Origin: a virus
Lineage: Duplodnaviria > Heunggongvirae > Uroviricota > Caudoviricetes
IMG/VR virus record: IMGVR_UViG_2671181134_000016
Reading direction: 5' to 3' (one strand)
Length of the DNA stretch: 40,220 bases
Both the position numbers and the translations under genes were made by a program. Shown piece after piece: positions 28,088-38,529 of this stretch. The notes beneath the pieces were generated by a model. It was given only the letters and a program-made list of their open reading frames with translations, ran no database searches and was not told the origin of the DNA. Position 1 is the stretch's first letter. Each line of letters begins with the position of its first letter.

Positions 28088-28534
28088 TTACTGTGCGAAC
28101 ACGCAATTTCGGCCTGATGGGGAGCCGACAATTCTGGACATTTTTTCGCAAATAACAGTTACTTGTTCTCCTTTTTTAAGAGCAGCAGCTGTTGATTTTT
28201 CAGAGTCTTGCATCTCCATTCTTGCTGGCATGAATTCATTTTCAGTTCTGAATTTAATAATTATAGAGTCAGTAAAGTCCTTATCAATGGATTGTACGAT
28301 ACCTCTAACGGCGATTAATTTACCTTTTAACTGTTCATCGGTAGCGACTTCATTTTCTTCATACTCTTTAAACAGCTGTCGAGCAGTAGTGTTGTAGATT
28401 TCTTTTTGCGGTGCCGCAGCTTCCGTATCGGATGAGTATGAAGAATTAGAGCCTTTATCGTTATTGCCTGCAAAATATCCAATAATCACCAACCCGATGA
28501 AAATATATAAAATCCATTTTAATAATTTCTTCAT
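28088..28534 (-). CDS. Moron: N-terminally membrane-anchored protein with OB-fold-like (tRNA_anti-like) C-terminal domain
   Basis: MKKLLKWILYIFIGLVIIGYFAG signal-anchor; AT-rich; opposite strand inside the tail operon. Confidence 0.6.
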   Translation of the reverse strand: MKKLLKWILYIFIGLVIIGYFAGNNDKGSNSSYSSDTEAAAPQKEIYNTTARQLFKEYEENEVATDEQLKGKLIAVRGIVQSIDKDFTDSIIIKFRTENEFMPARMEMQDSEKSTAAALKKGEQVTVICEKMSRIVGSPSGRNCVFAQ

Positions 28535-28644
28535 GTTATCACCTTAATGCTAATAATTTATATGGTTACAAATGGTAATGGCTACCACTACAAATTATGG
28601 CATTACCAGTAAATATTACTACTGATAATAAATATGGGACTTAT

Positions 28645-29973
28645 ATGACGTGGAAAGACAGGCTTCAGGATGCGTCATTTCGCAGCGTGCCGTTTAAGGT
28701 TGAAGAAGAAAGTGCGGGAACCGGTCGCCGTGTGGAAACACATGAATACCCGAACCGCGACAAGCCCTATACCGAAGATCTGGGAAAAGTCACTTTCCGC
28801 CCGTCCATCACAGCTTATGTGGTGGGAGATGACTGCTTTGACCAGCGCGATCGCCTGATTGAAGCGCTGAATAAACCCGGTCCCGGCACGCTTGTCCACC
28901 CGACATATGGTGAGCTGAAAGTCTGTGTTGACGGGGAAGTTCGGGTCAGCACATCGAAAAGTGAAGGGCGTATTGTCCGCTTTGACCTGAAGTTTGTCGA
29001 AGCAGGAGAACTCTCTTACCCCACATCAGGTGCGGCGACGGCGCAGACGCTGATGTCATCCTGTTCTGCACTGGATGACTGCATCAGTGACAGCTTCAGC
29101 GGTTTCAGTATCGATGGTGTGGCGGATTTCGTGCAGAACGACGTTATCGGTAATGCCAGCACAATGCTTGGGTATGTTTCTGATGCGATGAAAGTGGTGG
29201 ATTCTGCCGTATCGGATGCCGCCAGGCTGTTGCAGGGGGATATCTCGGTACTTCTGCCGCCGCCATCCTCAGGCAAAAATTTCGTTGAGCAGGTGCAGAA
29301 AATGTGGCGTACCGGGAAACGCCTTTATGGTAACGCCAGCGACCTGGTCACCATGATCAAAACGCTTTCCGGTGTCAGCCTCGGCAGCGATCTGCAACCG
29401 CGCGGCGTCTGGAAAACGGACAGTAAAACCACCGCCACGGCGACGCAGCAGCGTAACGTGGTTGCCAGCACCCTTCGTACGACCGCAATCAGCGAAGCGG
29501 CGTATGCCGTCACCCGATTGCCTGCGCCAACAACTTCCGCGGTGATGCAGAATTCCGCAGTGGGGCAGGCAACAACACCCGCGCAGAGCACTGGCTGGCC
29601 TTCCGTCACGCATCCGGCACTGAACAATGCACCGGCGGTGAAAAACACGGTTGACCTGCCGACGTGGGAAGAACTGACTGACATTCGCGACACACTGAAT
29701 ACGGCAATTGATAAGGAGTTGTCCCGTACAACCAGTGATGCGCTGTTTCTGGCGCTGCGCCGGGTGAAAGCAGATCTGAATGCGGATATCAACACGCGCC
29801 TTGAACAGTCTGCACGGATCATTCAGCGCACACCGGATGAGGTTTTACCCGCGCTGGTGCTGGCGGCGACCTGGTTTGATAACGCGGCGCGTGACGCGGA
29901 CATTATCCGGCGTAATGCCATTACGCATCCCGGCTTTGTGCCGGTGATCCCTCTGAAGGTGCCAGTGCAATGA
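28645..29973 (+). CDS. DNA circulation protein (Mu gpN/gp43-like); start uncertain (28597 or 28645)
   Basis: Position after tape measure in Mu-like order. Confidence 0.75.
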   Translation: MTWKDRLQDASFRSVPFKVEEESAGTGRRVETHEYPNRDKPYTEDLGKVTFRPSITAYVVGDDCFDQRDRLIEALNKPGPGTLVHPTYGELKVCVDGEVRVSTSKSEGRIVRFDLKFVEAGELSYPTSGAATAQTLMSSCSALDDCISDSFSGFSIDGVADFVQNDVIGNASTMLGYVSDAMKVVDSAVSDAARLLQGDISVLLPPPSSGKNFVEQVQKMWRTGKRLYGNASDLVTMIKTLSGVSLGSDLQPRGVWKTDSKTTATATQQRNVVASTLRTTAISEAAYAVTRLPAPTTSAVMQNSAVGQATTPAQSTGWPSVTHPALNNAPAVKNTVDLPTWEELTDIRDTLNTAIDKELSRTTSDALFLALRRVKADLNADINTRLEQSARIIQRTPDEVLPALVLAATWFDNAARDADIIRRNAITHPGFVPVIPLKVPVQ

Positions 29974-31049
29974 ACGACAATGTCACGCTACGGGTAAATG
30001 GCCGGGAGTGGAATGGCTGGACATCGGTGCGCATCGGTGCCGGTATTGAACGGCTGGCGCGGGATTTCAGTGTGGAGATTACTCGCCAGTGGCCGGGAGA
30101 TGAGGGTATCACCACGCTTCAGCCGCGCATTAAAAACGGTTCAAAAGTGGAAGTGCTGATTGGTGATGAGCTGGTGATCACCGGCTGGGTGGAGGCGACT
30201 CCCGTTCGTTACGATGCCCGTTCGGTCAGCACCGGTATTGCCGGACGTAGTCTGACGGCTGACCTGATTGACTGTGCAGCCGAACCGACACAGTTTAACG
30301 GACGCTCGCTGGTGCAGATTGCGCAGGCGCTTGCTGCGCCTTTCGGCATTGAGGTGGTGAACAGCGGTGCGCCATCGGGTGTTATTCCTGATGTTCAGCC
30401 TGATCACGGTGAAACGGTGATTGAGGTAATCAACAAAATACTCGGTCAGCAGCAGGCGCTGGCTTACGACGACCCGCACGGCAGGCTGGTGATTGGCGGT
30501 ATTGGCTCAACGCGGGCACATACCGCGCTGGTACTTGGGGAAAACATCCTTTCCTGTGATACGGAGAAGAGTATCCGGGAGCGGTTTTCTGTTTACCAGG
30601 TGGCGGGGCAGCGTGCCGGAAACGACGATGATTTCGGTGAGGCCACCACCACCGCGCTGCGGGCCCGCACAGAGGACGCATTTATTGCCCGTTACCGTCC
30701 GATGTATATCAGGCAGACAGGGCAGGCCACGGGGGCAGGTTGTATTGCGCGTGCTGACTTTGAAGCCCGACAACGGGCGGCGCGGACGGATGAAACCACC
30801 TATGTGGTGCAGGGCTGGCGACAGGGTAACGGTACGCTGTGGCAGCCCAACCAGCGGGTGATTGTCTTCGATCCGGTCTGTGGTTTCGACAATACCGAAC
30901 TGCTTGTCTCGGAAGTCACGTTTACTCAGGACCAGAACGGCACCCTGACGGAAATCCGTGTCGGCCCACCTGATGCTTATCTGCCTGAACCCGAAGCCCC
31001 CGGCGCGCGGAAAAAGAAAAAAGCCAGAGTACAGGAGGACCCGTTCTGA
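29970..31049 (+). CDS. Baseplate hub protein (Mu gpP/gp44-like)
   Basis: 359 aa in conserved order. Confidence 0.8.
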   Translation: MNDNVTLRVNGREWNGWTSVRIGAGIERLARDFSVEITRQWPGDEGITTLQPRIKNGSKVEVLIGDELVITGWVEATPVRYDARSVSTGIAGRSLTADLIDCAAEPTQFNGRSLVQIAQALAAPFGIEVVNSGAPSGVIPDVQPDHGETVIEVINKILGQQQALAYDDPHGRLVIGGIGSTRAHTALVLGENILSCDTEKSIRERFSVYQVAGQRAGNDDDFGEATTTALRARTEDAFIARYRPMYIRQTGQATGAGCIARADFEARQRAARTDETTYVVQGWRQGNGTLWQPNQRVIVFDPVCGFDNTELLVSEVTFTQDQNGTLTEIRVGPPDAYLPEPEAPGARKKKKARVQEDPF

Positions 31050-31597
31050 TGAGGACGATTGAAGCCATGCAGCGACAACTTCTCGGCCTGATTGGGCGGG
31101 CAGTGGTGAAAAGCATCAGTGCCGCCACGAAATGTCAGACTGTGGATGTGTCCCTGATTGCCGGTGAACCCAAAGCCGGGGTTGAACATCTTGAACCCTA
31201 CGGTTTTACCGCAAGGGCAAACAGCGGTGCGGAAGCGGTGGTGTTGTTTCCGGATGGCGACCGTTCTCATGCGGTGGTTGTTACGGTGTCGGACCGGCGC
31301 TACCGCCTGAAAGGGCTGCAGACGGGTGAGGTGGCTGTCTATGACGATCAGGGGCAGTCTGTGACGCTGACCCGGGAGGGGATCGTGGTGGACGGTGCAG
31401 GTAAAACGATCACGTTTCGCAATGCGCCCAGAGCACGTTTTGAAATGGACCTGGAAGTGACCGGACAGGTGAAAGACCTGTGCGACTCCGGCGGTACCAC
31501 CATGTCAGCGATGCGGCTTGCCTATAACGGGCATCGTCACAGAGAGAACGGTCAGGGCAGTAACACCGACAAACCTGATAAAGCGATGGAGGCATGA
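31049..31597 (+). CDS. Baseplate assembly/spike protein (Mu gp45-like)
   Basis: 182 aa, conserved order. Confidence 0.75.
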   Translation: MRTIEAMQRQLLGLIGRAVVKSISAATKCQTVDVSLIAGEPKAGVEHLEPYGFTARANSGAEAVVLFPDGDRSHAVVVTVSDRRYRLKGLQTGEVAVYDDQGQSVTLTREGIVVDGAGKTITFRNAPRARFEMDLEVTGQVKDLCDSGGTTMSAMRLAYNGHRHRENGQGSNTDKPDKAMEA

Positions 31598-32022
31598 TGG
31601 AACTGTGGCTGACGGTGAACGGTAAACGCACCTGCGCCAGCGCACAGCTGGATCCGCTGACCCGCGCCGTGGTGATTTCCCTGTTTACCTGGCGGCGGTC
31701 GGAGCCTGATGACAACGCCGATGTCCCGATGGGATGGTGGGGGGATACCTGGCCTGCGGTACAGAATGACCGTTACGGCTCCCGACTGTGGCTGCTTCAG
31801 CGCAGCAAACTGACCAATCAACTGGTGCAGACGGTAAGGGGGTATATCCGCGAATGCCTGCAATGGATGATTGATGACGGCGTGGTGTTCCGTATTGATC
31901 TGGATATCCGCCGTACCGGGATTAATGAACTGGGTAACAGTATCACTCTCTGGCGTCGTGACGGACCGGTAATGATTTCTTTTGATGATCTGTGGAGTGC
32001 GATAACGCATGGCGGACAGTGA
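31594..32022 (+). CDS. Baseplate protein (Mu gp46-like)
   Basis: 142 aa, conserved order. Confidence 0.7.
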   Translation: MMELWLTVNGKRTCASAQLDPLTRAVVISLFTWRRSEPDDNADVPMGWWGDTWPAVQNDRYGSRLWLLQRSKLTNQLVQTVRGYIRECLQWMIDDGVVFRIDLDIRRTGINELGNSITLWRRDGPVMISFDDLWSAITHGGQ

Positions 32023-33067
32023 ATTTCAGCGCCCGACGCTGGCAGAAAATATCAGTATGCTCCGTAACGATTTATTCGCCAGGCTGGACGTCAGCGACAC
32101 GCTCCGGCGCATGGATGAAGACGTGCGGGCAAAGGTGTATGCGGCGGCGCTGCATACGGTCTACGGGTACATCGATTATCTGGCAATGAATATGCTGCCT
32201 GACCTGTGCGATGAGTCCTGGCTGGCGCGACATGCTGCGATGAAACGGTGTCCGCGCAAGGGGGCCACGGCTGCCAGCGGGTATATGCGCTGGGAAGGTG
32301 TCAGCGATGGCCTGAAGGTGACTGCCGGGAGCGTGATTCAGCGCGATGACCTGGTTCAGTACACGGCAACTGCCGATGCAACCAGCTCCGGTGGTGTCCT
32401 GCGTGTGCCGATCACTTGCTCAACTACAGGCGCGGTCGGTAACGCTGACGACGGTACGGCATTAATCCTGGTCACGCCGGTGAATGGTCTGCCGTCTTCC
32501 GGTGTTGCAGATACCCTGACTGGCGGATTCGATACTGAAGATCTGGAAACGTGGCGCGCCCGCGTCATTGAGCGGTATTACTGGACGCCGCAGGGCGGGG
32601 CTGACGGGGACTATGTCGTCTGGGCTAAAGAAGTGCCCGGCATTACCCGCGCATGGACATACCGTCACTGGATGGGAACGGGAACTGTCGGTGTGATGAT
32701 TGCCAGCAGTGACCTGATTAATCCCATTCCGGAAGAATCAACGGAAACGGCGGCAAGACAACATATCGGGCCACTGGCCCCGGTGGCAGGCTCTGACTTG
32801 TATGTGTTCAGGCCGGTGGCACATACGGTGGATTTTCATATCCGCGTGACGCCGGATACACCGGAAATACGGGCTGCCATCACCGCGGAGTTGCGTTCGT
32901 TCCTGCTGCGTGATGGTTATCCGCAGGGAGAACTGAAGGTGTCGCGTATCAGTGAGGCGATTTCCGGTGCGAACGGGGAATACAGCCATCAGTTGCTTGC
33001 ACCGGCAGACAATATCTCCATTGCAAAAAATGAACTGGCGGTTCTGGGGACGATTTCATGGACGTGA
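32009..33067 (+). CDS. Baseplate J-like protein (Mu gp47-like)
   Basis: 352 aa, conserved order. Confidence 0.8.
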
Positions 33068-33642
33068 CAAACGATGATTACATCCGTCTGTTATCTGCAC
33101 TGTTGCCCCCCGGTCCGGCGTGGTCAGCCAGCGATCCGGCGATTGCCGGTGCGGCACCGTCATTAACCCGCGTTCATCAGCGTGCTGATGCCCTGATGCG
33201 GGAGCTGGATCCGCGCACCACCACCGAACTGATAAACCGCTGGGAGCGTCTGTGCGGCCTGCCGGATGAATGTATTCCCGCAGGGACACAGACCCTTCGC
33301 CAGCGTCAGCAACGACTGGATGCGAAGGTTAACCTGGCGGGCGGCATCAATGAGGATTTTTACCTTGCACAGCTTGCTGCCCTGGGCAGACCAGACGCTA
33401 CCATCACGCGATACGACAAAAGCACGTTCACCTGCTCATCAGCCTGCACTGACGCTGTGAATGCGCCGGAATGGCGGTATTACTGGCAGGTCAACATGCC
33501 AGCCGCCACCAACACCACCTGGATGACATGTGGCGATCCCTGTGATTCCGCACTGCGTATCTGGGGCGACACCGTTGTCGAGTGTGTGCTTAACAAACTC
33601 TGCCCGTCGCATACCTACGTAATTTTTAAATATCCGGAGTAA
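33058..33642 (+). CDS. Tail protein (Mu gp48-like / YmfQ-like, DUF2313)
   Basis: 194 aa, same size as remembered e14 YmfQ; directly upstream of the tail fibre. Confidence 0.75.
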
Positions 33643-33645
33643 TCC

Positions 33646-34308
33646 ATGCATCGTATAGACACGAAAACCGCGCAGAAGGATAAGTTCGGCGCGGGTAAGA
33701 ACGGTTTTACCCGTGGTAACCCCCAGACTGGCACACCTGCCACCGATCTGGATGATGACTACTTTGATATGTTGCAGGAAGAACTCTGCAGCGTGGTGGA
33801 GGCATCCGGTGCCAGCCTGGAGAAGGGGCGAAACGACCAGTTGCTTACCGCGCTTCGTGCTCTGCTGTTAAGCCGCAAGAATCCGTTTGGTGATATCAAA
33901 TCGGATGGCACGGTGAAAACGGCTCTCGAAAACCTTGGTTTGGGAGAAGCGGCAAGACGGGGGGTGGGAACAGGGGAAAATCAGATACCGGACATGGCTT
34001 CATTTAGTGGGGTGAGGGATTATTACGGAAAACAACTTTTGCCAGGAGGGTTGATACTTCAGTGGCTGACGATTCCATCAAGTGCAGCAGCTAAAGCTGT
34101 AACACTGAATAATGGTAATTATCAGCTGTCAGGCTATAAATGGCCCCAGTCATTTGGTGTCCTGTTTGCTGTGTTTGCCACAAAAGTTTCTGGCTCGACT
34201 AACGAAGCATATGCAATCTCAGTTAATCGTCACTCTACCGATGTAATTGTCACCTGGAATGCCCGTAAGGCTGATGATGTCCACATTTTAGGAATTGGGA
34301 AATTATGA
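33646..34308 (+). CDS. Tail fibre protein: constant N-terminal part (to about 33948) fused to the currently expressed variable C-terminal part
   Basis: GGAG Shine-Dalgarno; the inversion crossover site lies inside the gene at codons 97-101. Confidence 0.8.
33935..33949. repeat. Left inversion crossover site (TTGGTTTGGGAGAAG)
   Basis: Perfect 15-bp inverted repeat with the right site; embedded in the tail fibre gene. Confidence 0.65.
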
Positions 34309-34724
34309 AAATGAAATGGTCCCCATCTGTTCAGGGATTTTTCTCTGAAAATAACAGCGATATTCCCGATGATGCTTTCGATATTGAAGATGCTCTTTAT
34401 TATGAACTTATGAATGGTCAGAGTACGGGGAAAATTATTATCAATAACCCGGATAACTACCCTGTACTTACTGAATATCCAGCGAAGACACAGGAACAGG
34501 AAATAGCTGAAGCGGAGGGAATGAAAAGTATACTTATTGAACAGGCCAACGAATACATGAACAGTAAGCAATGGCCTGGTAAAGCCGCTATTGGTCGTCT
34601 GAAAGGTGAGGAACTGGCGCAATATAATTTGTGGCTGGATTATCTGGACGCACTGGAACTGGTTGATACCTCCAGTGCGCCAGATATTGAATGGCCTACG
34701 CCTCCGGCAGTTCAGGCCAGATGA
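34305..34724 (+). CDS. Tail fibre assembly protein (Tfa, expressed orientation)
   Basis: C-terminal conserved Tfa motif (...WPTPP...); coupled to the tail fibre stop. Confidence 0.8.
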
Positions 34725-35298
34725 CATCCGGCGCGGTGCTGGTATCTGTTGCCGTCACCGAGTCAATGTAATCCAGCACAGCGTTAAGTCGGGTGTTTTC
34801 TGTCTGCGTCAGCTTCCGCCCGGCCTGTAATTTCAGTTGAATCAGACTGATGGAAGCCATTGCAGCATCAATCAGCGACTGGCGCTGTGCTTCTGCCGCT
34901 TCTACTGCGGCGCTATGCTGTGCCTCAGTATCGGTCACCCATTTCTCACCATCCCATTCATCGTATGGCGTTAACGGGGCGATAGTGGTTGTATTTTCAG
35001 GATAATCACCCGGAGTTGTGATTTCTTTCGATTCTCCTGTTTCGGTGCTATAGATGATTTCACCGCGATGATCTGGTACATATTCCCATGAGTTAAAATC
35101 TGCAGAGCGGCAGATTGCATAACCAGCTTTGTAGGTGCCTGGAGCATCTAAACAGGAATATGCCGGAATGCCGACACCAACAGCAAGATATTCAGTTGAA
35201 GCTGAAATATACTCCCGACTCATGACGTCAAAGTTATAAACAGTAATTTCTCCTGCCATAGTGGCAATTAATTCACTGTTTAATTCTGCGTTATTCAT
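34696..35298 (-). CDS. Alternative tail fibre assembly protein (Tfa', silent orientation)
   Basis: C-terminus ...[12 protein letters not shown] is Tfa-like; convergent with Tfa. Confidence 0.75.
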   Translation of the reverse strand: MNNAELNSELIATMAGEITVYNFDVMSREYISASTEYLAVGVGIPAYSCLDAPGTYKAGYAICRSADFNSWEYVPDHRGEIIYSTETGESKEITTPGDYPENTTTIAPLTPYDEWDGEKWVTDTEAQHSAAVEAAEAQRQSLIDAAMASISLIQLKLQAGRKLTQTENTRLNAVLDYIDSVTATDTSTAPDVIWPELPEA

Positions 35299-35783
35299 TA
35301 TGCAGCCCTCACAATATAGTTAAAAGCGACATTTCGTGGGCGTGTTTCATTCGCACCTGCAGGTTTAGTCGTTGCCGCAACAACACCACCCTCTGTAATA
35401 GCCGGGTTGGGAATTGGGTAATTATCGAAGTCAATGGCTGGAGACAGGGGCGTGATTTGTTTTAAAATCGTGGTGCCTGTAAAACTTCCCAGAGTCTGGT
35501 CGTTAGTTCGTGAAGTCCAGATTCCCCAATAGTGGTTATGACTGACAATCGCACCGTCCTGAAGCGTTAATAATCCCCTTCCGTTATCCACTCCACGTCC
35601 GTCATCCCAGCCACGAATAAACTCACCGCGTAAATCAGGTAATTTATTTGTCGGATAAGCCTTTGCCAGTTCCGGGTATTCTTCAGCAGAAAAAGCTGCT
35701 CCGTTGCATTTCAGCCAGCCTGTTGGCGGAGTGGCTGAAGGCCACGGAACAGGCACACCAACGGGTAATGCTGAGCCTTCTCC
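35298..35783 (-). CDS. Alternative tail-fibre variable C-terminal segment (Sv'), lacking its own start; fused to the constant part upon inversion
   Basis: The frame continues from the crossover repeat (GLGE) with no ATG; the track's 'M' at 35786 is a TTG. Confidence 0.7.
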   Translation of the reverse strand, partial: GEGSALPVGVPVPWPSATPPTGWLKCNGAAFSAEEYPELAKAYPTNKLPDLRGEFIRGWDDGRGVDNGRGLLTLQDGAIVSHNHYWGIWTSRTNDQTLGSFTGTTILKQITPLSPAIDFDNYPIPNPAITEGGVVAATTKPAGANETRPRNVAFNYIVRAA

Positions 35784-35791
35784 CAAACCAA
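35777..35791. repeat. Right inversion crossover site (reverse complement of TTGGTTTGGGAGAAG)
   Basis: Inverted copy immediately upstream of the invertase gene. Confidence 0.65.
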
Positions 35792-35857
35792 CCTTTTAGA
35801 AAATGCAGTTGTTTCGTTCAGGTGGCATGATTCCGGCTTTTTACAGGGCTATTTATC

Positions 35858-36406
35858 ATGCTTATCGGCTATGTACGCGTGTCAACAAATGACCAGAACA
35901 CGGCATTGCAGCGAAACGCGCTGGATTGCGTAGGATGTGAACTGATATTCGAAGATAAGATCAGCGGCAGAAGTCTGACAGACCGGGACTGAAGAAGGTG
36001 CTCAGGACGCTATCAGAAGGCGATACGCTGGTGGTCTGGAAACCGGATCGTCTCGGTCGCAGCATGCGGCATCTTGTCGTTCTGGTGGAGGATACGGGAA
36101 AGAGGGATTAACTTTCGCAGCCTGACCGACAGCATAGACACATCTTCGCCAATGGGGCGTTTTTTCTTTCACGTTATGGGCGCTCTGGCTGAAATGGAGC
36201 GAGAACTGATTGTCGAACGCACTAGGGCGGGCCTTGCCGCGGCTCGTGAAGAAGGGCGGATCGGTGGGCGTCGTCCAAGGCTAACAGATGAGCAATGGGT
36301 GCAGGCAGGAAGATTGATAGCTGCTGGGGAATCACGGCAGCGCATAGCGATCATCTATGATGTTGGCGTATCGACGCTGTATAAAAAATTCCCGGTTAAT
36401 TGTTAA
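35858..36406 (+). pseudogene. pin: Pin/Gin/Hin-family serine DNA invertase disrupted by two compensating frameshifts (-1 near 35969-35977, +1 near 36091-36094)
   Basis: N-terminus MLIGYVRVSTNDQNT and C-terminus RERGINFRSLTDSIDTSSPMGRFFFHVMGALAEMERELI are in the same frame; the middle (DRPGLKKVLRTLSEGDTLVVWKPDRLGRSM) is in another frame; stop at 35990 in the start frame. Confidence 0.8.
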
Positions 36407-36560
36407 CAGATGCCGCAGTCTCGCCATATGCAAGAGCGGACTGCGGCAGGCAACAGAGTGTTCATGCCCACATTGCCGACAGAAAGGATAGCAGAGAAAA
36501 GAGAAGGTGGAATTGTCAGGTGTTTCACCATTAATTCACCATCGGCAAATTGCAGGTATA

Positions 36561-36590
36561 AAAAAACCAGCCTTAAGAGGTTGGTTTTAT
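36561..36590. terminator. Putative bidirectional terminator after the invertase region
   Basis: A-run, imperfect stem CCAGCC/GGTTGG, T-run. Confidence 0.4.
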
Positions 36591-36720
36591 TGGGGAATTT
36601 TGGTCGCACGAGAGAATTTGAACCTCCGCCCCCTGACACCCCATGACAACAAGCAATAATATGTATAACATGGGTTTTTACATGACATATAATAAATTAA
36701 TTTTTGTAAAGGGAAATCTT

Positions 36721-37681
36721 ATGGATTCAAGAAGATATTTGCATACTGTAATATTAATTGCTGGTATAGTATTTATATGTATATTGGTTATATACTTAAT
36801 TTATCCAAAGGTGATATTTACTATCAGTGATAACTATTTAAATCCATTGGTTTTAATAGCGATGGTTTTGTCGTTTTCCTCAGTAGTGCTGTTATTTATA
36901 AAGTATTTAAATAAGGATATTGGCAATGATCATTCTAAAAAAGAAACAGCACAGAATTATGCCATTGAACTGAAGAAAGAACTAGAAAGAATAAATGGGA
37001 GACTTGAGGCAATAGATAGGCCCATTGCTGGAAAATCCAGTGATATCATACTAAGTGATGCGGAGAGAGCAGATTTTATTGAAAGGGCGAAAAAGAAAAT
37101 TGCAGGTGAAATGATAATTAATGCATCAGAAAGTTTAAAAAAAGAGATGCAACACATTAAAGAACAGTTAAGTATTAATGAGCATTATGAAGATATGGTT
37201 TACAGAATCAAAAAAGAAATAGATAGACTTAACAGGCGAGGTGGAGCTAACCTTGGCATTGGTGCTTCAATCGCTTTTTTTGGAATAGCGTATCTGGGTT
37301 ATGTTGTTTCAAAACAAACTGTCACGACCGATGTAATTAATTATCTGATTCATATGTTACCTCGAATTTCTTTTGTATTAGTTATAGAGGTTTTTGCATA
37401 TTTTTTTTCTAAAGTTATATAAAAATGGTTTTGATGAGGTAAAATATTTTCAAAATGAATTGACAAATATTGAGGCAAAAGTATTGGCCATTAAATTTTT
37501 AAAAGATGTTAAAAATGAAGATTTAATGGCTGAAGTTATAAAAAATCTAATGACAACAGAGAGGAATTTTATATTATCAAAAGGACAGACGACTGTGGCA
37601 TTAGAAAAAGAAAAAATCAAGGGGCTTGAAGATAAAAATGCTTTATCTATTATAAAGGAGTTAATTAAGTTAAAAAGTTAG
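36721..37681 (+). pseudogene. AT-rich membrane / coiled-coil protein of unknown family, interrupted by a +1 frame change in a T8 homopolymer (37401-37408)
   Basis: ATG at 36721 with AAGGGA upstream; 2 TM + coiled coil + 2 TM; deleting one T in the T8 run joins both ORFs into about 320 codons. Confidence 0.5.
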
Positions 37682-37985
37682 CGGGGATATTAAGTGAGGT
37701 TGGTTGTACGTTGCAGGTGCTTGTGCATCTGCATTTAAATAATGAGGTTTAATTAAACAGCACGTGAATAATAAAATAAATAGGCTGTTTAATTTTTTTA
37801 ATAGGGAGGGAAGGTAGCTCATGATTTTTACTGGGTAGGTGATATAGCTTATTGTAGTATCGTTCATGCTTGTTGAACTTAAGGTTTGATACTCCGCCAT
37901 ATATACCGGTCCGCTGAGAATGTAAGATACAAAAGTCTTTTATAGTATCAAGTTATACTTCACGAGCAAAATATGAGGAGTGTTT

Positions 37986-38198
37986 ATGAAGGGAAGAACC
38001 ATTGCTGACTATGCAAAGTTAGCGCAAGAATCTGCCAAACGTAACGTATTAAGAACTGAGTTTAGTGAGTATCTCAAGGTAAATGGCCTGGAGAGGAGTG
38101 AAGAGAATGCTCATACTTTTGCCTTTGGGAAAACAAACAATCATGACGATAGAGTTAATCTTGTACATATGCTGATGTCAGGTGTATGGGGTGGCTAA
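37986..38198 (+). CDS. Small hypothetical protein (70 aa)
   Basis: ATG at 37986 with GAGGAG Shine-Dalgarno 5 nt upstream. Confidence 0.4.
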   Translation: MKGRTIADYAKLAQESAKRNVLRTEFSEYLKVNGLERSEENAHTFAFGKTNNHDDRVNLVHMLMSGVWGG

Positions 38199-38529
38199 AT
38201 CATCATTAAGGCTGGAAAATTTTCACCAATGAAGGTTGCTGTTTTCTGTAAGCTTTTGAGGGTACAGCAATGAGAATTATGAAGTATTGGAGAAAAATAA
38301 ATTCAACTAATTGATTACACTATATAAAATGCATGATTTAAATTCTCTCTTTAGAGTGAACCTACTGAATAGTGTTAGCTGTCGATTTTGACCAAAAAAG
38401 GGTTATCAAAACCCAAAAACATATATTGATAATCAGTGGGTTAGGGGAATGCCGATAGTCAGTTGGTTAAGTGTGAATTGGTGGAATTATACTTACATAT
38501 CAAATTGTTGGTATTAGTCTTTCTAAATA

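Follow-up and report, generated by a model that had tools for sequence, protein, structure and literature searches.

The closest described relatives of the locus analysed here are the P segment of the Escherichia coli K-12 element e14 with its invertase PinE (Plasterk & van de Putte 1985; Mehta et al. 2004, both as cited in PMC4272514), the G segment of phage Mu with Gin and the C segment of phage P1 with Cin. The e14 repeat has been published as TTGGTTTGGGAGAAGG, which is the 15-mer TTGGTTTGGGAGAAG of the present locus plus one G, and experiments have shown that PinQ, encoded by prophage Qin, inverts the e14 P segment in trans (PMC12529663). In K-12 from which pinE had been deleted, the P segment stayed locked in the laboratory except when PinQ was overproduced (PMC12529663), so flipping in trans may be very rare. 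Our locus lies in the window, by which we mean the whole 40,220-bp stretch of DNA that was analysed, and belongs to a prophage that occupies icd in E. coli strain STEC17-183. The genes follow one another in the order ymfQ-fibre-tfa-tfa'-Sv'-pin, and an icd' remnant is followed by iraM/ymgK/bluR. With its full morphogenesis gene set, terminase through baseplate genes, the prophage is apparently a complete e14/SfV-like myovirus. The sequence marks the locus as an orthologue of the K-12 e14 P segment, and for this reason the sequence-only reading, which had recognised a Mu G-segment/e14 P-region architecture, is right: the sites, the paired cassettes, the in-frame fusion and the orthology to e14 P all hold. 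The switch is of a type already known from the e14 family, and only its cassettes, which differ from those of K-12, and its dead cis invertase set the locus apart.

The segment had been described as bounded by a perfect 15-bp inverted repeat, and TTGGTTTGGGAGAAG indeed occurs exactly at 33935-33949 on the plus strand and as its reverse complement at 35777-35791 on the minus strand. Two matches to this 15-mer were reached in 0 of 100 dinucleotide-preserving shuffles (mean 0.14), and the repeat is exact and non-random. Allowing for imperfect pairing, its arms lengthen to 24 nt (33926-33949 and 35777-35800) that are 88% complementary, and 1827 nt separate them. According to the ORF list and translation, the left 15-mer lies inside the tail-fibre gene and encodes L-G-L-G-E, as first read. 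No third copy was found elsewhere in the 40,220-bp window at up to two mismatches, on which ground further crossover sites, as in a multi-site, shufflon-like or Min-like system, were rejected.

Around the repeats we delineated two inverted sites of 26 bp, each consisting of two 12-bp imperfectly symmetric half-sites with an identical 2-bp core. The left site, of the pixL type (33923-33948), reads CTCTCGAAAACC-TT-GGTTTGGGAGAA with its core at 33935-33936, and is identical to the left site of K-12 e14 at 26 of 26 positions. The right site (35778-35803) reads TTCTCCCAAACC-AA-CCTTTTAGAAAA with its core at 35790-35791, or TTTTCTAAAAGG-TT-GGTTTGGGAGAA as the reverse complement. Core and inner half-site are shared with the right site of K-12 e14, TTCTCCCAAACC-AA-CGTTTATGAAAA; the outer half-site in the window is degenerate and holds a TAA on the minus strand (35796-35798), closing the frame that enters the segment from the pin side. 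Both sites align in the same 12-2-12 layout with the Mu gix and P1 cix sites, for which boundaries and crossover points were taken from the annotation of the respective records. The 15-bp repeats comprise the core and the inner half-sites of two crossover sites of the Gin/Hin/Cin/Pin type. Another candidate at 36574-36587 was rejected as a crossover site, as it belongs to a hairpin that follows the invertase gene and matches the inner half-site at only ~6 of 12 positions.

The invertible segment itself spans 33937-35789, i.e. 1853 bp between the cores and 1827 bp between the 15-bp repeats. Outside it lies the constant tail-fibre part Sc (33646-33936, plus strand; from the ATG in the ORF list to the crossover core), which gives the start codon and the N-terminal ~97 aa to both fibre forms. 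Sc is 92.7% identical to K-12 StfP over residues 1-109, and it is identical in strains S19-651 and ARS-C101, where it is joined to the other cassette. In the present orientation the full fibre gene covers 33646-34308 on the plus strand and encodes 220 aa. Its expressed variable C-terminal part Sv (33950-34308, plus strand; ORF list) has a weak Gp53-like_C match below the Pfam cut-off (E=0.0065) and is unrelated to the variable part of K-12 StfP, the alignment ending at residue 109. The start of tfa, encoding the chaperone paired with Sv (34305-34724, plus strand; 139 aa; PF02413 Caudo_TAP, E=5.7e-24), overlaps the fibre stop codon, and its product is 49.6% identical to K-12 TfaP. Convergent with tfa and overlapping it by 29 bp is tfa' (34696-35298, minus strand; 200 aa; PF02413, E=8.4e-32), which encodes the chaperone paired with the silent cassette and is 87% identical to K-12 TfaE in its product. 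The silent alternative variable part Sv' (35298-35776, minus strand) matches the Collar domain (PF07484, E=7.6e-16) and is 58% identical to K-12 StfE; its ORF of 162 codons (35298-35786, minus strand) has no ATG, and the frame runs through the right repeat.

ORFs and Pfam matches agree with the original assignment of an expressed C-terminus and Tfa to the plus strand and of a startless alternative segment with an alternative Tfa to the minus strand. Inversion in silico bore out the proposed in-frame fusion, a 260-aa protein in which ...ENLGLGE is joined to GSALPVG...; the TAA stop of this protein and the start codon (ATG) of the alternative Tfa overlap. A promoter and terminator consensus scan of 33400-36700 did not rise above shuffles (7 promoters against 4.9±1.9; 3 terminators against 3.2±1.9). 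In the PGAP annotation of the window, the expressed fibre is a 'hypothetical protein', the invertase appears as two fragments, and the silent cassette is treated as a gene of its own, a 'phage tail protein' that begins at a TTG within the repeat.

An invertase had also been placed beside the right repeat. A gene of the Gin/Pin family of serine invertases is found there (35858-36409, plus strand), its start 67 bp beyond the repeat, but it is not intact: alignment to intact pinE genes and the Chris1 invertase reveals two frameshifting deletions, of 1 nt at ~35969-35972 and of 2 nt at ~36091-36093, in keeping with its three-frame translation and the PGAP note 'frameshifted; incomplete'. A premature TGA at 35990-35992 leaves a reading frame of 44 codons, and as the deletions total 3 nt the frame is restored downstream. 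The repaired protein matches PF00239 and PF02796 as well as the Gin structures 3UJ3 (E=1.2e-87) and 4M6F (E=1e-87), and is 79% identical to P1 Cin and 74% identical to Mu Gin. At the DNA level the gene shares ~80-85% identity with pinE and belongs to a different allele lineage. The adjacent invertase is a pseudogene, so that the switch in STEC17-183 cannot be run by its own enzyme; this dead invertase changes how the switch works here, not what the locus is. Near the start of the gene, 35876-35947 is homologous to the recombinational (Fis-dependent) enhancer, the P1 equivalent of which occupies nt 19-90 of cin. Identity is 57/72 to the P1 enhancer and 56/72 to both Mu gin and K-12 pinE, the P1 reference being the record annotation 'enhancer of Cin-mediated C-segment inversion'. 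Since it lies upstream of both deletions, this putative enhancer is undamaged.

The identical frameshifted allele is present in the complete genomes of S19-651 and ARS-C101 (100% over 629 nt). This bears on the possibility that the frameshifts are sequencing or assembly errors, in which case the invertase would be intact and the switch would work in cis as in K-12 e14. Indel errors are common in long-read assemblies, and deletions that sum to 3 nt and restore the downstream frame would suit such an explanation; we nevertheless consider it very improbable, as both deletions recur at 100% identity in three assemblies (STEC17-183, S19-651 and ARS-C101) from two different laboratories, in Switzerland and the USA, neither falls within a long homopolymer, and PGAP flags the invertase as frameshifted in all three records.

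Both S19-651 and ARS-C101 match the in-silico-inverted junction at 100%. From 33900 to 36420, S19-651 equals the window with exactly 33937-35789 reverse-complemented (0 mismatches), and it equals the inverted window across 7.8 kb with 1 SNP, which lies outside the segment. ARS-C101 shows the same exact flip with 3 SNPs, within the segment, over the window-equivalent of 33900 to 36420. The PGAP annotation of both strains lists the 260-aa form under WP_032331726.1, as a 'tail fiber protein'. At the level of the assemblies of three genomes, both orientations of the segment occur, and the breakpoints coincide with the crossover cores. S19-651 diverges from the window at 36615, and recombination beside pin was rejected as the cause; S19-651 has an insertion of ~9.8 kb there, beyond which the cargo genes continue as in the window. 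In Pfam and PADLOC scans, none of the three cargo ORFs that follow pin gave a match above threshold.

Because an identical broken invertase accompanies an exact flip in S19-651 and ARS-C101, we infer that at least one inversion took place later than the loss of the invertase, most likely caused by a related invertase acting in trans. Alternatively, inversion might have ended when the invertase was lost, the strains having come to differ in orientation by homologous exchange with a related phage carrying the flipped segment or by gene conversion spreading the dead pin allele. A dead cis invertase is what such a frozen relic would have, the segment of K-12 without pinE is locked under laboratory conditions (PMC12529663), and prophages of the e14 type are mosaics that abound in E. 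coli, with 3466 of 5426 genomes matching the 4-kb region. This explanation nonetheless appears unlikely to us. Segment and pseudogene of STEC17-183 and S19-651 are base-for-base identical save for the flip, whose breakpoints lie exactly at the cores, and an exchange that uncoupled orientation from the dead allele would have to resolve within the <200 bp separating the first deletion (~35970) from the right core (35790-35791). Furthermore, none of the 5426 complete E. coli genomes contains an intact copy of the window's invertase allele, the next best being 86.5% identical.

We therefore favour, with a probability of about 0.75, an e14-type P switch with a dead cis invertase that is mostly locked and occasionally flipped in trans by a related invertase. 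The fibre promoter would, like the start codon and the first ~97 codons, sit outside the segment, which comprises two convergent cassettes, each pairing a variable fibre C-terminus with a Tfa chaperone of its own. By recombining at their 2-bp cores, the inverted 26-bp sites would flip the 1853-bp segment and join the constant head in frame to either cassette, yielding the 220-aa fibre in the present orientation and a 260-aa Collar-domain fibre in the flipped one, and this swap would presumably change the receptor bound by the phage. Up to the fibre swap, the steps are shown by the sequence or follow from homology to the Gin/G system of Mu, the Cin/C system of P1 and the Pin/P system of e14. 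With both sites and the enhancer-equivalent region apparently intact and the cis invertase dead, the segment may be locked most of the time; the same dead allele with both orientations in near-identical prophages suggests occasional flips in trans by a putative related invertase elsewhere in the genome. Searches with blastn indicate 1-2 further invertase-like places in each of the three chromosomes, and for STEC17-183 invertase-like places number 2 by megablast and 3 by blastn (all counts per record). By megablast STEC17-183 exceeds its near-twin S19-651 by one such locus, which is the first candidate for a source of the putative trans-acting invertase. That Gin, Cin, Hin and Pin can complement one another is well established, reportedly since Plasterk and colleagues in 1983 and van de Putte and colleagues in 1984. 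The narrower proposal that this is an orphaned host-range switch, which has lost its own invertase, kept its sites and enhancer and is flipped by the invertase of a co-resident prophage, seems to us slightly better than an even bet. If it is true, host-range variation or a host-side phenotype depends on which prophages share the lysogen, and the three-genome comparison provides natural-population evidence for inter-prophage dependence.

The segment could also serve the host in the lysogen, inversion producing a chimeric fibre-derived protein that blocks the adsorption of other phages. According to Kirigo et al. 2025 (PMC12529663), inversion of the orthologous K-12 segment gives rise to such a protein, StfE2, and the adsorption of T2 is inhibited by it. 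The StfE/StfE2 frame of K-12, however, begins before the segment is reached from the pin side (leader MPFACYFFIFINV). In the window the TAA at 35796-35798 closes this frame, so that the segment is not entered by any ORF from the pin side. In addition, the variable part that would form the StfE2 C-terminus is unrelated to its K-12 counterpart, and with the full morphogenesis gene set a host-range role in the virion is available. We give a host service of this kind only slim odds.

For the e14-type switch flipped in trans that we favour, the main value of the analysis is correct annotation, as a P-type switch accounts for the PGAP labels of the fibre, the silent cassette and the invertase. The locus is also a clean natural case of a segment that occurs in both orientations even though every copy has a dead cis invertase, in agreement with the recent experiments on inversion of e14 DNA in trans by the PinQ of another prophage, and it identifies three sequenced strains where inversion in trans is directly testable. 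As the prophage looks complete, it could be used to reveal what the fibre alternatives of the e14 family recognise, the e14 of K-12 being defective.

With the Mu G segment and Gin, the locus shares the Sc, Sv-U/U'-Sv', gin layout, the invertase directly beyond the segment, and 26-bp sites in a 12-2-12 arrangement. The G segment differs in its size of ~3 kb, in repeats that measure 34 bp, in its TC/GA core and in fibres that are much longer; gin is intact, and the Mu fibre proteins are not orthologous to those of the window. The P1 C segment and Cin have the cassette logic and the TT core in common with the locus, and the P1 inner half-site GGTTTAAGAGAA is of the same type as GGTTTGGGAGAA in the window. 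The P1 enhancer lies inside the 5' part of cin, the stretch along which the window is identical at 57 of 72 positions. However, the C segment measures 4.2 kb with inverted repeats of ~0.6 kb, and cin is intact and, unlike the window's invertase, on the other side relative to Sc. With the P segment of K-12 e14 the locus shares the icd site, the icd' remnant followed by iraM, the order ymfQ-stfP-tfaP-tfaE-stfE-pinE, convergent tfa genes overlapping by 29 bp in both, a constant fibre part that is 93% identical and a TfaE that is 87% identical. In contrast, e14 is a 15-kb remnant, whereas the prophage here is seemingly complete; Sv is unrelated beyond residue 109, while Sv' is 58% and Tfa 50% identical, and the invertase pseudogene of the window belongs to another allele lineage than pinE. 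K-12 e14 further has a pin-side StfE/StfE2 leader ORF, which in the window is closed by a stop codon, and mcrA after pin, where the window has low-GC unknown genes.

The invertible tail-fibre segment of the E. coli STEC17-183 prophage is a textbook system at a textbook locus and as such already known: direct measurements of e14 phase variation exist for MG1655 (PMC4272514), and P-segment inversions have been reported for 33% of 562 E. coli genomes (PMC12529663). Our only additions, both read from sequence, are that the invertase in cis is dead and that the segment nonetheless seems to have been flipped among natural isolates.

The 15-bp inverted repeat claimed in the sequence-only reading was borne out, with TTGGTTTGGGAGAAG at 33935-33949 (plus strand) and its reverse complement at 35777-35791. 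Allowing up to two mismatches, no third copy occurs in the 40,220-bp window, and 100 dinucleotide-preserving shuffles never yielded two matches to the 15-mer. With 88% complementarity the inverted repeat can be followed over 24 nt, its arms separated by 1827 nt. An ORF list and a Pfam domain search recovered the gene arrangement described in that reading: a fibre gene (33646-34308, plus strand, 220 aa) and a Tfa chaperone (34305-34724, plus strand, PF02413) converge with a second chaperone, Tfa' (34696-35298, minus strand, PF02413), which is accompanied by a silent cassette, a reading frame lacking an ATG that carries the phage tail Collar domain PF07484 (35298-35786, minus strand). The convergent tfa genes share 29 bp at their 3' ends (34696-34724), as do K-12 tfaP and tfaE, so that each strand of this stretch encodes the C-terminal residues of one of the two chaperones. 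RefSeq labels are misleading at this locus: the expressed fibre (33646-34308, plus strand) is named 'hypothetical protein', and the silent cassette (35786-35298, minus strand) is entered as a 'phage tail protein' in its own right, WP_016236591.1, with a TTG start inside the inverted repeat. The constant head of the fibre lies outside the segment and two cassette-plus-chaperone modules lie inside it. We inverted the segment in silico by reverse-complementing 33937-35789, the stretch bounded by the two 2-bp cores, the earlier reading having named an in-frame fusion as its check. The constant head then reads in frame into the silent cassette (...ENLGLGE joined to GSALPVGVPVPWP...), so both fusions are in frame, and the inverted form encodes a fibre of 260 aa, its TAA stop codon overlapping the ATG with which the second chaperone starts.

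Three-frame translation of 35858-36409 revealed no full-length invertase ORF. The product is split into MLIGYVRVSTNDQ...ISGR in one frame and SDRPGLKKVLRTL...EDTGKR in a second, with a third piece, GINFRSLTD...VNC and stop, back in the first. Alignment with intact pinE of K-12, IZSBS22 and 81EVA and with the invertase of Citrobacter phage Chris1, the closest intact relative (89.6% amino acid identity), identified two deletions, of 1 nt at about 35969-35972 and of 2 nt at about 36091-36093, neither at a long homopolymer. After the first deletion, translation runs into a TGA at 35990-35992, and the remaining reading frame has 44 codons. PGAP labels the gene 'frameshifted; incomplete', and in RefSeq it is broken up, one part being a pseudogene and the other a 'helix-turn-helix domain-containing protein'. 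Once repaired, the product is clearly an invertase of the Gin family: it contains PF00239 and PF02796, matches the Gin structure 3UJ3 (E=1.2e-87) and shares 79% identity with P1 Cin and 74% with Mu Gin. The adjacent invertase of the sequence-only reading thus stands as a Gin-family gene beside the segment but not as an intact one, given the two deletions and the premature TGA. The P1 record places the recombinational enhancer at cin nt 19-90; the equivalent stretch here (35876-35947) is identical to it at 57 of 72 positions and lies upstream of both deletions. The cis-acting DNA elements, including the putative enhancer, therefore look intact, while the enzyme gene is dead. A hairpin 3' of the invertase gene (36566-36600; AACCAGCC-TTAAGA-GGTTGGTT, then TTTATT), not called in a terminator scan, includes GGTTGGTTT, a stretch similar to the crossover sites across their core and inner half-site.

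Among 5426 complete E. coli genomes the invertase allele is found in only three, STEC17-183 and S19-651 from the same Swiss collection and ARS-C101 from US cattle, and is 100% identical over 629 nt in all three, both deletions included; no other match exceeds 86.5% identity. Sequencing error as the source of the frameshifts is unlikely because the same two deletions recur in three genomes, and the lesion is ancestral to all of them. The junction predicted by in silico inversion is present in S19-651 and ARS-C101 (100% over 441 nt), where PGAP names the 260-aa fusion 'tail fiber protein'. Compared base by base over 28766-36614, S19-651 departs from the inverted window only by one SNP outside the segment, at 29871; in ARS-C101 there are three SNPs within the segment and a SNP cluster further upstream. 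Neither genome shows any difference in the crossover sites or the pseudogene. Taken together, the shared dead allele, the differing orientation and the breakpoints exactly at the cores lead us to infer from the three assemblies that at least one site-specific inversion followed inactivation of the cis invertase.

S19-651 departs from the window after 36615, where an element of about 9.8 kb encoding an integrase and a primase intervenes before the same cargo genes resume, and we therefore rejected a recombinant junction at this point in favour of an insertion. The element (NZ_CP075852.1, ~550,700-560,770) adjoins the invertase pseudogene at window-equivalent 36615, starting about 15 bp downstream of the hairpin. 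It carries genes for an integrase, an HTH regulator, an Ash-family fragment, Icd-like proteins, a DNA primase, SSB and PerC, which together suggest a phage satellite or a P4-like element, and is absent from STEC17-183 and ARS-C101.

In the Gin, Cin, Hin and Pin systems, a serine invertase dimer occupies each site, the sites synapse with the Fis-bound enhancer, and cleavage staggered by 2 bp at the core is followed by subunit rotation and religation. In the STEC17-183 lineage the inverting enzyme would have to come from elsewhere in the genome; blastn counted one or two further invertase-like places per chromosome in each of the three genomes. In 1984 van de Putte et al. reportedly found e14 Pin by complementation of Mu gin mutants. 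The K-12 P segment can be inverted in trans by the PinQ enzyme of prophage Qin and is locked in normal laboratory conditions when pinE is deleted (PMC12529663), so the switch here would be expected to stay locked most of the time and to flip rarely.

The window matches the STEC17-183 chromosome (NZ_CP075652.1) at 100% identity and consists entirely of one prophage. It starts at intE/xisE beside icd; genes for regulation and lysis come next, then those for terminase, portal, capsid, sheath, tube, tape measure and baseplate. At the right end stand ymfQ and the fibre switch, then the invertase with a small set of cargo genes, and after these an icd' remnant and iraM/ymgK/ymgL/ycgX/bluR. It is apparently an SfV-like myovirus prophage, complete rather than remnant. 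Within the tail module, a single gene annotated 'OB-fold protein' (~28090-28536; record 563532-563978) stands between those for the tape measure and DNA circularization, on the opposite strand to the tail genes, and has the look of a moron-type insertion. The cargo slot at 36640-38200, which separates the invertase pseudogene from the icd' remnant and is where K-12 e14 has mcrA, contains three small ORFs, one of 259 aa (36643-37422), with a G+C of 0.32 versus 0.49 for the window and no significant Pfam or PADLOC match. Because relatives hold different genes there, such as those for an HNH endonuclease and an AAA ATPase in 81EVA, the slot behaves as a hotspot for variable accessory or defence genes. 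The icd-intE interval (NZ_CP075652.1 591,500-593,586, the window start and just past its left edge) may be another such slot, encoding an AAA-family ATPase and a hypothetical gene where K-12 e14 has ymfD/ymfE/lit.

The attachment site and right-end context match those of K-12 e14, and the e14 order ymfQ-stfP(ycfK)-tfaP-tfaE(-)-stfE(-)-pinE-mcrA-icdC is that of the window; judged by this shared site and gene order, the locus is the orthologue of the e14 P region. The variable part of StfP is unrelated to the expressed variable fibre C-terminus of the window, the alignment stopping at residue 109, whereas the silent counterpart is 58% identical to StfE, Tfa 50% to TfaP and Tfa' 87% to TfaE. In K-12 the pin-side ORF (MPFACYFFIFINV) runs into the segment to give StfE and, after inversion, the StfE2 chimera, which has been linked to T2 resistance (Kirigo et al., PMC12529663). 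In the window a TAA at 35796-35798, within the outer half-site, closes the pin-side frame, so a StfE2-type product is not expected. The published e14 repeats, 5'-TTGGTTTGGGAGAAGG-3' with 1797 bp between them (Kirigo et al., NAR 2025, PMC12529663), equal the window 15-mer plus one G. Each 15-mer comprises the 2-bp core, the 12-bp inner half-site and one extra base of a 26-bp site. Written as outer-core-inner, the window sites are CTCTCGAAAACC-TT-GGTTTGGGAGAA (left, 33923-33948) and TTTTCTAAAAGG-TT-GGTTTGGGAGAA (right, 35778-35803, reverse complement). The e14 left site, CTCTCGAAAACC-TT-GGTTTGGGAGAA, is identical at 26 of 26 positions, and the right one, TTTTCATAAACG-TT-GGTTTGGGAGAA (reverse complement), shares core and inner half-site, its outer half-site being degenerate as in the window. 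Mu gix (TTATCCAAAACC-TC-GGTTTACAGGAA) and P1 cixL (CAATCCTAAACC-TT-GGTTTAAGAGAA) and cixR (TTATCCAATACC-TT-GGTTTAAGAGAA, reverse complement), with boundaries and crossover points taken from the annotation in the phage records, are likewise laid out as 12-2-12. The orthologous locus, the Gin-type sites, the in-frame fusions and the exact flip found in nature support the Mu G-segment and e14 P-region architecture that had been proposed from the sequence.
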